DNA from: Deltaproteobacteria bacterium
GTDB taxonomy: Bacteria; Desulfobacterota; Syntrophia; Syntrophales; Smithellaceae
Assembly (NCBI GenBank): GCA_025361065.1
Contig: JANYAY010000169.1
Coordinates: 1-59,698, forward strand
Length of the DNA stretch: 59,698 nt
Direction of reading: 5' to 3'
This document shows positions 12,265 to 27,491 of the stretch, piece after piece (position 1 is the stretch's first letter; the number at the start of each line of letters is the position of its first letter). The position numbers were made by a program, and so were the translations under genes. The notes beneath the pieces are model-generated. The model ran no database searches, had not been told where the DNA came from, and was given only the letters and a program-made list of their open reading frames with translations.

Positions 12265-12575
12265 AAATTTTCTCCTCCACGAATAATAATTTTTGCCCGG
12301 CAGCCATATCCTCAATCTTTGCCCATTGAGAATTTGATTTACCCGGACGATTTTTCCTTGTGGCTATTCATCTTCCGCATCTGCGGGAAGAACACTTTGT
12401 AGTCGTATTATCACTAAAGTGGCCTACCGGTATAGCATTTTTTTGTGGGGAAAATATCAGACCGGCTTCAGAATCGAACTAAACAGCAAACCTTGCACAG
12501 TTTGCCCAAACGGGTTTGAAGCCCGCGGCCGGCGCCAGCCGACTAAACCGGTCATGGTTTTAATTTTGGCAGCCT

Positions 12576-25068: not shown

Positions 25069-25590
25069 CTATTCGTCGCCGGAAACTTCCACCGCTTTAA
25101 TTTCTTCAACAGATAAAACCTGGTCAATATCGAGCAGGATCTTAATACCACCGGCAATTTTGGCCATACCCAGGATAAATTCGGTATCGAGCTTCGTACC
25201 GAAAGCGGGTGTTGCTTCAATATCAGTCTCCTTAATACTAAGAACCTCCGAAACGGAATCAACCACTATACCCATGAGAATAGTTCGTCCTGCTGCTGAT
25301 ATTTCCACTACAATAATGCAAGTCCTTTCCGTGTAGTCAGCCGGAGCCATCATGAACTTGGCACGCAGATCAATAACCGGAATTACTTTACCACGCAGAT
25401 TGATTACTCCTTTAATGTAGGAAGGTGTCTGAGGAACAATTGTAACAGGCATCATGCCGATTATTTCTTTGACTTTCAGGATTCCGATACCATATTCTTC
25501 TCCAGCCAGACTAAAGGTCAAATATTTACCTTCTTTATCGCCAATAACTTTGACAGCCTGATCCATTATTTTTGTTTGTTGTATTGCCAC
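25069..25590 (-). CDS. cheW: Chemotaxis adaptor CheW
   Basis: YLTFSLAGEEYGI, VPQTPSYIKGVINLRGKVIPVIDLR, GIVVDSVSEV. Confidence 0.93.
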   Translation of the reverse strand: MAIQQTKIMDQAVKVIGDKEGKYLTFSLAGEEYGIGILKVKEIIGMMPVTIVPQTPSYIKGVINLRGKVIPVIDLRAKFMMAPADYTERTCIIVVEISAAGRTILMGIVVDSVSEVLSIKETDIEATPAFGTKLDTEFILGMAKIAGGIKILLDIDQVLSVEEIKAVEVSGDE

Positions 25591-25637: not shown

Positions 25638-26186
25638 TTAGAAAACAAACACAGCGGCGGCGATTATAGTGGTGTATTTATTATTTTTGCATTTTGTTGA
25701 TTGAGTGACATTGAATGTACGGACTATTTTCCCGCTGATTTTGAATATTTCCTTTTTCTCATCCCAGCTTTCATCAACATCGAAATCAATACCTAAAGTG
25801 GAGGCCAGCATAGCTGCCGCAAGATCCTCGGCATATTCACCGGCCTGCTTTTCCGTTTGGCCGAATGCATGATGTTCACTGATATAGCCATATGATGATT
25901 TATTCGCCGGAATGGCGCAACCGACAGACGCCGCCAGCAGCCGTTTTGGTTCGTTACTGCAGCAACGGCTCATGACACAATAAGTAATGGCACCGGGAAC
26001 CAGTTCCTTGAGCCCATGGGGCTTGGAAATCATTTTACAGTGCGGCGGGAAGATACTGGAAACCTGGACTAAATTACATTTTTCAATGCCGGCATCACGC
26101 AATGCCCGCTCAAACGAATGCAACTCATCCTTGTGTGTTCCAACTCCTTTGGTAAAAAAAATCTTTTTAGGTACAAAAACAGACAC
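25638..26186 (-). CDS. pdaD: Pyruvoyl-dependent arginine decarboxylase
   Basis: [25 protein letters not shown] (Ser-Ser cleavage site); YGYISEHH. Confidence 0.9.
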
Positions 26187-26249: not shown

Positions 26250-26717
26250 TTATCCGCCGTCAGTTTGAACAAACGCAGTATTTGCATATAAATACTCTAC
26301 CTTTTCTTTATGCTTCATTTCCTGATTGGCCATCTTCAGTAACATTTGTTTTATTTCGCCGTCCGGATGAATAGCCGCCAGTCCCTTGTAAAAATTATAG
26401 GAGTTTAACTCTCTTGCGGCAGCCAGAAGATAAACATCTTTGCTATCCATATCGTATTTGACCTGGGGAGACTGTAAAAACTCGGCAATTTGGTTATTAG
26501 TTGCATCATCGGTTTCCGTGGCATTGCCGATAAAACTCTCCTGCCGGTAATGCAGAAGATATTCTTTATGTTGTTTTTCTTCTCTCGCCAGATAAAGAAG
26601 CGTATCTTTTGCCATTTTATCGGTAACTATCTCGGCAAGCTTTAAATAAAACTGGTTTGCTTCTTCTTCATTGACAATCGCTTTTTCCATGATGGAATCA
26701 AATTCGATATTCTTCAT
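26250..26717 (-). CDS. Ferritin-like / rubrerythrin diiron-domain protein
   Basis: AIVNEEEA..FY, EEKQH, ARE..SYNFY, QEMKH. Confidence 0.85.
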   Translation of the reverse strand: MKNIEFDSIMEKAIVNEEEANQFYLKLAEIVTDKMAKDTLLYLAREEKQHKEYLLHYRQESFIGNATETDDATNNQIAEFLQSPQVKYDMDSKDVYLLAAARELNSYNFYKGLAAIHPDGEIKQMLLKMANQEMKHKEKVEYLYANTAFVQTDGG

Positions 26718-26746
26718 AATTATTTCACCTGTCTGCAAATTAAAGA

Positions 26747-26763
26747 ACCGGCCGCCGGCCGGT
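26747..26763 (-). promoter_or_regulatory. Putative bacterial SECIS for the C-terminal UGA
   Basis: ACCGGCC-GGC-GGCCGGU hairpin starting 11 nt after the UGA at 26775-26777. Confidence 0.7.
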
Positions 26764-26765
26764 AT

Positions 26766-26981
26766 TCATACACCTCAGGATCCGCCATAACCTACCGTTA
26801 CCTTATCATTTTCAATGATCACCGGTACCTGGCGTCTCCCACCGGAAAATTGCAGCATTTCTGCCAATTTATCGGCATTTGCTGTTACATCGACATAAAC
26901 AGCCGAATTACCAAAAGCCACCCTGGCCTTATCTGTATAAGGTCAACCGCCTTTTCCGTAAATAATTATTTGCTCGGACAT
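26766..26981 (-). CDS. Glutaredoxin-like selenoprotein with two Sec (UXX-star type), 71 aa
   Basis: Manual translation: MSEQIIIYGKGG-U-PYTDKARVAFGNSAVYVDVTANADKLAEMLQFSGGRRQVPVIIENDKVTVGYGGS-U-GV*. UGA occupies the Cys position of a CPYT active site; cis-Pro motif VPVI; both UGAs are followed by hairpins. Confidence 0.88.
26914..26930 (-). promoter_or_regulatory. Putative bacterial SECIS for the active-site UGA
   Basis: AAGGCCA-GGG-UGGCUUU hairpin with G-rich loop starting 12 nt after the UGA at 26943-26945. Confidence 0.65.
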
Positions 26982-27005: not shown

Positions 27006-27491
27006 TTAATATTCGCTTAAAACGGAAAGTCCTCTTTCCCCTACTAAAATTATTCGAGTATGGGTCAATCTTGTCGCAATTAATTTAGCCACAACCTGCA
27101 TAATTTTGAACCCGAGATTACAGTCTTCCTCCATCAGTTTTCTCAAACCGAAGGAATCAAAGGCAATTACTTTGGAATCATCGATGCAAAGAGCTCCAAG
27201 AGTATATAAAAAAGGCTCAACCACTGCTGACCAGCCCATGGACTCCCCTTTAGTGATCATGTCCACTGTAACTTGCATCGGCGGCTTATGCGGGCCCATA
27301 TAATTATCTATAAACAAGACGACTTTACCTTCTTTAACCAGGTAAAGGGATCTGGCGGTATCACCATTTTGGTACATTTGATGCCCGGCCAAATAGCTTT
27401 CTTCGCTCGCCAGGGCCGCCAATTTGTCTAGCTGCTCATCATTAAATTCTTTAAAAAATGCAAATTCCTTTAAAACACTAATGGGGACCAT
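27006..27491 (-). CDS. Stand-alone cyclic-nucleotide-binding (CAP_ED) domain protein
   Basis: LKEFAFFKEFNDEQL, GDTARSLYLVKEGKV, GESMGWSAV; no HTH. Confidence 0.82.
   Translation of the reverse strand: MVPISVLKEFAFFKEFNDEQLDKLAALASEESYLAGHQMYQNGDTARSLYLVKEGKVVLFIDNYMGPHKPPMQVTVDMITKGESMGWSAVVEPFLYTLGALCIDDSKVIAFDSFGLRKLMEEDCNLGFKIMQVVAKLIATRLTHTRIILVGERGLSVLSEY

Follow-up and report, generated by a model that had tools for sequence, protein, structure and literature searches.

A probable unannotated UXX-star family 1 selenoprotein gene with two in-frame UGA codons and SECIS-like hairpins in a Syntrophales contig

A gene with two in-frame UGA codons and its family

The gap between the cNMP-binding and ferritin-like genes of the window, by which we mean the entire 59,698-nt stretch of DNA that was analysed, very probably holds a genuine member of the NF041114 selenoprotein family that has gone unannotated. 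Taken as a whole this is the best explanation of the region, and its functional part is graded separately below. The first-pass annotation had proposed a hidden 71-residue frame with two recoded UGAs, and the coordinates confirm it: the minus-strand frame 26981..26769 comprises 71 codons, with in-frame TGA at codons 13 and 69 when TGA is translated as U. Its claim that the true stop is also a UGA, 2 nt from the second hairpin, is likewise correct (26768-26766). The features discussed in the text are listed here.

27006..27491, minus strand: upstream neighbour of 161 aa with a cNMP-binding domain only (Pfam cNMP_binding, 35.2 bits)
26769..26981, minus strand: glutaredoxin-like coding sequence of UXX-star family 1, 71 residues with Sec13 and Sec69 (translation with TGA as U)
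26981-26979, minus strand: start ATG
26943..26945, minus strand: UGA-1, read as Sec13 in the active site GG-U-PYT
26914..26930, minus strand: SECIS-like hairpin 1, within the coding sequence, beginning 12 nt past UGA-1
26775..26777, minus strand: UGA-2, read as Sec69 in GGS-U-GV, third residue from the C-terminus
26766..26768, minus strand: stop UGA, the third in-frame TGA, 6 nt past UGA-2 and 2 nt ahead of hairpin 2
26747..26763, minus strand: SECIS-like hairpin 2, in the 3' UTR beyond the stop, 7 pairs with loop GGC, 11 nt past UGA-2
26250..26717, minus strand: downstream neighbour, a ferritin-like protein (rubrerythrin/erythrin-type) of 155 aa (Pfam Rubrerythrin, 44.3 bits)
12459..12553, minus strand: tRNA-Sec gene with anticodon TCA (Rfam RF01852, 52.7 bits; ARAGORN)

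Table 11 ORF calling across the gap gave no ORF, only a 48-aa internal piece at 26775..26921. The 3' end of the frame reads TGA-GGT-GTA-TGA at 26777-26766, that is, the Sec codon, exactly two codons and the stop, and the active-site motif is U13-P-Y-T, from which the second Cys is absent. The gene is also spanned by a DNA contig from a relative (X5), which shows 22 differences over 844 nt and has all three TGA codons unchanged; both stems are unchanged too, except at position 26920 on the edge of loop 1. In metatranscriptome run X11, two 172-nt contigs from a 95-99% relative fell on the ferritin-like and cNMP genes and none on the selenoprotein gene.

Other ways of reading these codons were rejected. 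A three-TGA frame of 243 codons that reads through the stop into the ferritin-like gene was dismissed as chance; the selenoprotein and ferritin-like genes share a frame in the window and at locus L061, and have different frames in L056 and L059. An alternative genetic code with TGA as Trp or Gly was also discarded, as TGA terminates 13 of the 43 long frames in the window and the recoded positions align with Cys.

Membership of the UXX-star glutaredoxin-like selenoproteins, which had been suggested beforehand, was borne out by the family model. With NF041114 ("UXX-star selenoprotein family 1", NCBIfam), for which the curated equivalog threshold is 72 bits, the read-through protein scored 104.4 bits; with Pfam Glutaredoxin it scored 30 bits. 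A six-frame search of the genome with NF041114 gave 89.9 bits for the sole match above the cut-off, and of 401 sampled genomes of the phylum, 95 had a match above the cut-off, most of these matches having two in-frame TGA codons. The window copy agrees with UXX-star family 1 in equivalog score, UxxT site, number of Sec residues, placement of one Sec three positions from the end and length of about 70 residues. It differs from the family in no testable feature and is simply unannotated.

The family with its two Sec residues is already catalogued, both in NCBIfam and in a review table. The table in question, from a 2026 review, enters UXX-star family 1 as 'UxxT, 2' (two Sec), passages of the reviews PMC9312934 and PMC13188914 call the NF041114 family 'Distant Grx-like protein 1', and a review passage credits further UXX-star families to Haft and Tolstoy 2025. 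UXX-star family 1 is not named in the main-text passages of the GOS paper, whose supplements may bear on priority, and no biochemical characterisation of the family was found in the literature searched. Among the copies in public protein libraries some are truncated and others misread, with Trp at the Sec sites. For annotation, the window thus adds one more selenoprotein gene overlooked by standard gene callers; current knowledge is not overturned by any of these results.

Codons, hairpins and decoding at the two Sec sites

The alignment of Cys or TGA with the two UGAs, put forward beforehand as a check on the reading, was found in the relatives. Among 37 family genes, site 1 (active site) is TGA in 29 and Cys (TGC or TGT) in 8, while site 2 (tail) is TGA in all 37. 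UGA-2 is followed in every one of these genes by two codons and an immediate stop. The two residues are GV, AV, GI, RV or DI, with all four bases represented at both third positions, and the stop codon is TGA in 20 genes, TAA in 12 and TAG in 5. In metagenome locus L098 both codons are TGC; its 3' end is TGC-AGC-GTT-TAG, which means that translation there runs through the tail. The first-pass annotation had cast the tail Sec as the resolving residue, and the Sec/Cys pattern opposes this. Since site 1 alternates with Cys and the tail codon is invariably TGA, the pattern suggests that the tail Sec is harder to replace than the active-site one and is more than a resolving residue.

Library proteins ending in C-x-x were checked at the DNA level for one group. 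In a separate codon count, seven of fifteen regions fetched entered the counting script and six matched. L053 was missed by the count pattern and by eye has Cys at site 1 and U-Q-V followed by TGA in the tail, and L049, which was left out of the count, reads U at site 1 and U-K-V, then TGA. L044-L047, L050, L051 and L054 were left out as a different variant, having a longer insert and a U without the layout of two codons and then a stop.

Each UGA had been described as followed at 11-12 nt by a 7-bp stem. This agrees with what was found, the distances being 12 nt and 11 nt, with 7 pairs in each stem and covariation in both. Hairpin 1 (AAGGCCA / GGG / UGGCUUU at 26930-26914) has 7 pairs if one G-U pair and the A-U pair closing the 3-nt loop are counted; its conserved core consists of 5 pairs (26929-26925 with 26919-26915) that enclose the 5-nt loop AGGGU in the centroid fold. 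In 18 relatives, chosen after the pairing table was already known, 81.5% of cells are paired compared to 73.7% after shuffling, double-change cells number 10 against 3.0, and 14 of the 18 lack the outermost pair. In the remaining 19 family genes just 1-4 of 6 hairpin 1 pairs form. The hairpin is also kept in L026 and L048, which have Cys at site 1, so codon constraints (Ala-Arg-x-Ala) account for part of it.

Hairpin 2 (ACCGGCC / GGC / GGCCGGU) begins 2 nt beyond the stop UGA. Model R1 gave it 34.8 bits in the window and matched nowhere else in the genome. In alignment A3, which was fitted to the model in a way that favours pairing and takes in two further weak matches (E 0.42 and 0.63), pairing holds in 96.6% of cells, compared to 66.1% after shuffling and 25-40% in slid controls. 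Double-change cells number 68 against 14.9 after shuffling, compensatory changes occur in 6 of 6 pairs, and the observed covariation score was reached by none of 500 shuffles. At site 2, 35 of the 37 family genes have a stem of five or more pairs without interruption, the loop contains a G in all 37, and the distance from UGA to loop is 17-24 nt. Judged from these aligned sequences, support for hairpin 1 is weaker than that for hairpin 2.

When the regions were folded alone, hairpin 1 of the window gave z +0.72 (147 of 200 shuffles fold as well) and hairpin 2 gave z -1.31 (21 of 200). As folding in the window is no better than chance, the case rests on comparison, namely the family HMM, the recurrent TGA columns and covariation. 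No hairpin was found after the second site of the Cys/Cys locus L098 (z +1.87; 199 of 200 shuffles fold as well), and the same region of the Sec-form locus L100 gave -16.2 kcal/mol and z -2.68. The codon counts at the two sites, the coding pattern after UGA-2 and a Cys/Cys homolog without the hairpin together indicate that the Sec codons are under selection.

Passages of PMC10778597 place the working distance from UGA to apical loop of bacterial SECIS elements at 16-37 nt, and describe a bacterial SECIS in the 3' UTR that works for C-terminal Sec in engineered thioredoxin reductase (TrxR). In the window the loop lies about 18 nt past each UGA. The stop is itself TGA, 9 nt after the Sec TGA, in 20 of the 37 family genes, and a distance of 17-24 nt from the Sec UGA to the loop leaves 8-15 nt from the stop to the loop. 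The earlier proposal that distance to the hairpin separates the Sec UGA from the stop UGA is supported indirectly, 8-15 nt being below the range given in those passages of PMC10778597.

From this anatomy and the comparison we infer that SelB with Sec-tRNA(Sec) would be recruited by a small hairpin with its loop at such a distance past each Sec UGA. Hairpin 2, lying beyond the stop codon, would be a bacterial SECIS naturally placed in the 3' UTR. The stop UGA, just 2 nt from hairpin 2, would be too close for SelB delivery, and for this reason would be read by release factor. The Sec machinery whose presence had been set as a check was detected: selA (608 bits), selB (364 bits, the match spanning positions 2-580 of a 581-position model) and selD (379 bits, carrying its own in-frame TGA) are in the genome, and the tRNA-Sec gene is in the window.

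SECIS elements of the fdhF type in bacteria are small hairpins 11-12 nt past the UGA with a G in the apical loop and the loop within 16-37 nt, and the two hairpins resemble them in all of these respects. They differ from the fdhF type in their short stems of 5-8 pairs and loops of 3-5 nt; moreover, hairpin 2 is untranslated and SelB binding is putative. In about half of the family only 9 nt separate the Sec UGA from a stop UGA, which offers a test of the SelB spacing rule, and the family provides, for testing, a natural bacterial SECIS wholly after the stop codon.

Hairpin 2 might instead be a plain intrinsic terminator, with UGA-1 alone recoded and UGA-2 ending a protein of 68 residues. In the window it is G+C-rich and followed by TCTTTAATTT, a T-rich run lies directly 3' of it at 26746-26737, it appears in the terminator scan list, and T-rich tails occur in close relatives too. 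However, only 4 of the 37 family genes have five or more T among the 8 bases that follow the hairpin, and the terminator features present in the window are not conserved as such across the family. The spacing between UGA-2 and the hairpin is fixed and the loop G is present throughout, the codons after UGA-2 show a coding pattern with a stop at once in all genes, and the Cys/Cys homolog L098 translates the tail. We consider this account very improbable, although hairpin 2 may double as a terminator, judging from the T-rich run in this clade. The frame could also have arisen by chance, or be what is left of a glutaredoxin gene that has decayed through two nonsense mutations, as the skipping of the gene by gene callers and its loss or decay in relatives (L092, L062) might lead one to think. 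Such an origin is hard to reconcile with TGA in the same two columns across 37 genes from many genera, a read-through HMM score over the cut-off, covarying hairpins and a complete Sec machinery, and we give it hardly any credence.

Fold and gene neighbourhood

The AF2 model (pLDDT 84.8) has the order b1-a1-b2-a2-b3-b4 of a glutaredoxin fold that stops short of the last helix. Model confidence is lowest in the tail (pLDDT 68 for the last block). TM-scores were 0.77 to 3ic4 and 0.76 to E. coli Grx3. A Foldseek search of the 71-residue model against PDB gave no match at E <= 0.001 (best 2.1e-3, TM 0.77), so the fold was taken from the TM-scores and from the sequence profile, which matches PDB glutaredoxins down to E 2e-9. 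As modelled, the protein is a glutaredoxin fold minus the last helix, with a UPYT site and a glycine-rich GGSUGV tail.

Compared with class I glutaredoxins and NrdH/YruB-type redoxins (E. coli Grx3, 1FOV/3GRX; A. fulgidus Grx, 3IC4; NrdH, 1H75), the fold is alike at TM 0.76-0.77, and shared features are the K-x-x-[C/U]-P-Y surroundings of the active site, a cis-Pro loop and the G-[FY] that follows the last strand. In contrast to those redoxins, Thr replaces the second active-site Cys and a GG-[ST]-U-x-x tail replaces the C-terminal helix. All glutaredoxin NCBIfam models stayed below their curated cut-offs (at most 28.8 bits against cut-offs of at least 84), and only the broad Pfam domain passed. 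The CPYC-type site, C-terminal helix and curated score of a glutathione-dependent class I glutaredoxin are all absent. In the genome, which is 97% complete, the two glutathione synthesis models searched, gshB TIGR01380 and gshA TIGR01434, had no match, and TrxR was found at 373 bits against a cut-off of 343. For the function proposed below, thioredoxin reductase would be a likelier reductant than glutathione.

The cNMP gene ends 24 nt before the ATG of the selenoprotein gene, and its upstream position is conserved in Syntrophales-type MAG loci. Fifteen related loci carry the selenoprotein gene intact, and in 14 of them the ferritin-like gene follows it; these loci are kin and not independent. 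The ferritin-like gene is directly downstream in L056 as well. In 10 related loci it occurs without the selenoprotein gene; L092 retains only the N-terminal half of the latter and L062 is without it. No NCBIfam model matched the ferritin-like neighbour above cut-off. Its invariant columns among 22 relatives include E17, E47, H50, E103, E133 and H136. A tblastn search with the two window neighbours against 30 loci across the phylum gave one weak match. In a distant clade, a gene cluster adjoins the selenoprotein gene in five loci (L029, L031, L035, L036 and L042), and its L029 member, the sole one scanned, matches Pfam Rubrerythrin. Synteny is confined to the order, except for the ferritin-like gene, which recurs in one further clade. 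No metal-handling genes were found beside the selenoprotein gene in other clades; NDK, protoglobin-PsiE and M48 peptidase genes are located there.

Possible function of the two Sec residues

In the mechanism that we propose, the tail Sec would shuttle between the active-site Sec, through an Se-Se bond, and an outside substrate or partner; in relatives with Cys at site 1 the bond from tail to site would be S-Se. We put forward this shuttle function tentatively, as a reading that falls somewhat short of probable. The neighbouring ferritin-like diiron protein is a candidate partner. A fuller version, in which the tail Sec would be the catalytic centre of a TrxR-reduced Se-Se/S-Se shuttle serving the adjacent ferritin-like diiron protein, is distinctly unlikely. 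If it were true, syntrophic anaerobes would gain a minimal selenium-dependent module for oxygen/peroxide or iron handling, and the two UGAs, with their 9-nt separation, would provide a natural measure of minimal SelB-SECIS spacing. A two-selenium redoxin with a tail Sec almost never replaced by Cys is a test case.

With the same gene and the same decoding, the selenolates could coordinate a metal or a metalloid, or transport a small species of selenium or sulfur, without Se-Se cycling. A review passage counts the family among those whose Sec may bind metals, the conserved neighbour is an iron-binding ferritin-like protein, and a tail Sec with almost no Cys counterpart fits selenium-specific ligation. 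Against this stand the redoxin fold as scaffold, Sec at the canonical nucleophile position, the retained cis-Pro loop (VP), the toggling of site 1 with Cys as in redox Sec/Cys pairs, and the lack of metal-handling genes beside the gene in other clades. On balance, metal or metalloid ligation seems rather unlikely.

The proposed Se-Se shuttle can be compared with known Sec redox proteins. SelL is a UxxU diselenide selenoprotein. The window protein resembles SelL and the bacterial UxxU proteins, families of which are listed in a review table, in having two Sec in one small redox protein with a proposed Se-Se oxidised state. It differs from them in that the two Sec are 56 residues apart and each needs its own SECIS. 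Mammalian TrxR has a GCUG motif, and its C-terminal Sec tail works on a redoxin domain. Sec lies within three residues of the C-terminus in a Gly-rich tail both there and in the window protein, whereas the partner of the tail Sec would here be the second Sec, 56 residues away, and not an adjacent Cys. According to passages of PMC10778597, mammalian TrxR expressed in E. coli has its SECIS in the 3' UTR just past the stop, as in the window. Unlike that construct, the window arrangement is natural and bacterial, and the tail is on a 7.7-kDa redoxin instead of a flavoenzyme.

Identity of the gene and its selenocysteine machinery

Under table 11, the gap between the cNMP-domain and ferritin-like genes holds only a 48-aa fragment. 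When TGA was translated as selenocysteine (Sec), it read as one frame with a Sec at the active site (site 1) and another third from the C-terminus (the tail). Re-reading of the frame and sequence found the gene, UGAs and SECIS-like hairpins of the first-pass annotation accurate in every detail.

27491..27006 (-), cNMP-domain gene, upstream neighbour
26981 (-), ATG of the selenoprotein frame, 71 codons with TGA as Sec
26945-26943 (-), UGA-1, codon 13, GG-U-PYT, with TGA as Sec
26930-26914 (-), hairpin 1, AAGGCCA/GGG/UGGCUUU, 12 nt past UGA-1
26777-26775 (-), UGA-2, codon 69, GGS-U-GV, with TGA as Sec
26768-26766 (-), third TGA, frame end in the translation with TGA as Sec
26763-26747 (-), hairpin 2, ACCGGCC/GGC/GGCCGGU, 11 nt past UGA-2 and 2 nt past the stop
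26717..26250 (-), ferritin-like gene, downstream neighbour
12459-12553 (-), tRNA-Sec, anticodon TCA, 14 kb from the selenoprotein gene

NCBIfam NF041114, "UXX-star selenoprotein family 1", is an equivalog model whose cut-off is 72 bits; the read-through protein scored 104.4 bits with it and was alone above that cut-off in the 3.95-Mb genome. The protein is more than chance, unlike the two hairpins of the window taken alone, whose folding energies were ordinary compared with shuffles (z +0.72 for hairpin 1 and -1.31 for hairpin 2). The gene is real, was correctly read, and is a member of an already known, curated two-Sec family. A table in a 2022 review lists this family as "Distant Grx-like protein 1 ... 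UxxT" (PMC9312934), and a passage of review text states that its Sec residues may bind metals or unknown substrates (PMC13188914). Further UXX-star families were reportedly introduced by Haft and Tolstoy in 2025. The Sec machinery by which the reading was to be checked was all present in the genome, namely selA (608 bits), selB (364 bits), selD (379 bits) and the tRNA-Sec. The selD gene (G000:C167:13840-14763, L012) contains a single TGA in frame, which makes the selenophosphate synthetase of this genome a selenoprotein too. The two-Sec gene of the window is ordinary for a Sec-rich anaerobe.

Codons and hairpins across the family

In a six-frame search of 401 sampled genomes of the same phylum, NF041114 was over its cut-off in 95, and most of the matches in these genomes contained two TGA. 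Codons were counted in 37 genes: the window's own, those of the 30 best loci, and those of six out of seven further regions submitted to the count. The tail codon was TGA in all 37, while site 1 was TGA in 29, TGC in five and TGT in three. The stop codon was TGA, TAA and TAG in 20, 12 and 5 genes, respectively. The two residues past the tail Sec were GV (26), AV (4), GI (4), RV (2) or DI (1); both codons used all four bases at their third positions, and the fifth base was always T. This is a coding signature, indicating that translation continues beyond UGA-2.

Searching 1.84 billion representatives with a profile returned 201 proteins at E <= 1e-10. Among the best 150 of these, many copies stopped exactly at GG[ST] and some started at an internal Met. 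Others had Trp at both Sec positions and ran through the third TGA (P0012, P0015, P0019-P0021, P0023, P0025, P0027, P0028, P0030 and others, the stop TGA often being read through); we attribute these copies in public protein libraries to gene calling in which TGA was translated as Trp. Of the best 150, a few ended in C-x-x, and the DNA of one such group was checked. Metagenome locus L098 has TGC at both sites and ends TGC-AGC-GTT-TAG. The family therefore does include Cys opposite each of the UGAs, as in the homologs for which the first-pass annotation proposed to search. L099 and L100 of the same group have TGA at both sites and a TGA stop. Cys is rarely found at the tail position.

Structural conservation is clear for hairpin 2. 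With a plain MAFFT alignment as input, RNAalifold gave six pairs, with compensatory changes in all. A covariance model was then built and the sequences realigned; in this alignment, whose fitting to the model favours pairing, 96.6% of cells were paired (66.1% in shuffles), double-change cells numbered 68 (14.9 in shuffles) and the score was reached by 0/500 shuffles. Sliding the partner by 1-3 columns as a control left 25-40% paired. A simple stem finder detected a stem of 5 or more pairs without interruption in 35/37 genes. The stem started mostly 11 nt (12 genes) or 12 nt (9 genes) past the tail UGA and the loop 17-24 nt past it, with a G in the loop in 37/37. A T-rich run followed the hairpin in only 4/37 genes; in the window, TCTTTAATTT comes directly after it. 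No such hairpin was found in the Cys/Cys locus L098 (z +1.87, 199/200 shuffles folding as well), and that of the Sec-form L100 folded at -16.2 kcal/mol. In the window's genome the model matched this one site and none other.

Support for hairpin 1, which overlaps the codons of a conserved Ala-Arg-x-Ala, was weaker than for hairpin 2. In 18 genes with Ala/Val at the fourth position, a group picked after the pairing table had been looked at, 81.5% of cells were paired compared to 73.7% in shuffles, and double-change cells numbered 10 compared to 3.0. The outermost pair of the seven-pair stem first described was unpaired in 14/18. Hairpin 1 was kept in two genes with Cys at site 1. The other 19 genes (Asp/Glu at the fourth position) could form only 1-4 of 6 pairs, and other folds were predicted.

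A second Grx-like variant was seen in L044, L046, L047, L050, L051 and L054 (genomes G116, G240, G394, G321, G213 and G324). Its site is U/C-P-F-C or similar, and an insert of 10-15 residues past b4 precedes GG-T-U. Its frame continues 3 to about 10 codons past U, compared to two in family 1, and here too a hairpin is present, about 13 nt past the TGA, e.g. in L044. Both variants occur in G116 and G394. L045 (G270:C322) has Tyr at the active-site position and an apparently duplicated tail, S-U-S-L-S-U-S-C-U.

Three UGAs, protein fold and proposed redox role

The mechanistic extras of the first-pass annotation are reasonable and in part follow from known SelB rules. Both Sec UGAs lie about 18 nt from their loops, and the stop UGA about 9 nt from loop 2. 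With the stop UGA in the ribosomal A site, the ribosome footprint would place the stem already in the mRNA channel, melted. According to a review, the bacterial rule is 16-37 nt from UGA to apical loop, and in an engineered thioredoxin reductase a bacterial SECIS moved to the 3' UTR acts for a Sec at the C-terminus (PMC10778597). The stop UGA falls outside this range, and distance would distinguish Sec from stop. The 20/37 genes with a TGA stop 9 nt past a Sec TGA show that this arrangement is tolerated; they represent no defensible statistical excess, the relatives varying in base composition. TGA ends 13/43 long frames in the window.

AlphaFold2 with the 37-row alignment gave a model (pLDDT 84.8; 68 in the last block) of order b1-a1-b2-a2-b3-b4, lacking a C-terminal helix. 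The top PDB matches were glutaredoxins (3ic4, TM 0.77), with all structure matches at E above 1e-3. E. coli Grx3 superposed with TM 0.76 and rmsd 1.6 over 66 columns, and profile positions 4-68 aligned with Grx3 residues 2-65. The family's G-[FY] after b4 matches the point at which the Grx "GG" region ends, and the start of the last Grx3 helix is replaced by the GG-[ST]-U-x-x tail. The Grx region matching this tail borders the active site, which would make a Se-Se contact between site 1 and the tail Sec plausible.

No match to gshA or gshB was found (two models only, genome 97% complete) and thioredoxin reductase was present (373 bits), which points away from glutathione as the reductant. The tail Sec had been proposed as the resolving residue, but the single-Sec genes among the 37 say otherwise: eight were Cys/Sec (site 1/tail) and none Sec/Cys. 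Sec usually holds the attacking position in redox selenoproteins. Retention of the tail Sec when only one remains would therefore favour a tail-first mechanism, like that of the C-terminal tail of thioredoxin reductase.

Gene neighbourhood

Between the end of the cNMP gene and the selenoprotein ATG are 24 nt, so the two genes are likely co-transcribed. Thirty-nine loci encode relatives of the cNMP protein, and all except one of these loci come from MAGs of Smithella/Syntrophaceae/Syntrophales type. An intact UXX-star gene lay right behind the cNMP gene in 15 of them (12 by pattern, 3 by alignment) and partial copies in two; the ferritin-like gene was next in 14 of the 15. Ten loci had the ferritin-like gene alone behind the cNMP gene and eight had neither. 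L056 has the order of the window, cNMP, selenoprotein, ferritin-like, arginine decarboxylase, and the decarboxylase is a constant downstream neighbour in related loci (85-94% identical). Five loci of an unrelated clade (L029, L031, L035, L036 and L042) share a gene cluster next to the selenoprotein gene, and the L029 member, the only one of the five scanned, matched Pfam Rubrerythrin. In another clade the neighbours are instead NDK and a protoglobin-PsiE gene. The ferritin-like protein reached no curated NCBIfam cut-off; its invariant residues E17, E47, H50, E103, E133 and H136 presumably form a doubled E...ExxH diiron site. Together, gene order is suggestive of a link between the selenoprotein and the ferritin-like protein.

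Reading through every TGA joins the selenoprotein and ferritin-like genes into one 243-codon frame (26250-26981, minus strand), which was taken as chance since L056 and L059 have the two in different frames. Past the ferritin-like gene lie genes for a pyruvoyl-dependent arginine decarboxylase (25638-26186, minus strand, 210 bits) and a CheW-like protein (25069-25590, minus strand). Signs of repeated loss were seen: in L092 the selenoprotein gene is reduced to its N-terminal half, L062 passes from the cNMP gene straight to the ferritin-like gene, and L060 and L067 retain just 21-27 residues of the latter. In L029 and in G334, G284, G227 and G358, family genes lie in open frames of 231-440 codons, and an M48 peptidase gene is found just upstream of the selenoprotein gene in L029 and L031.
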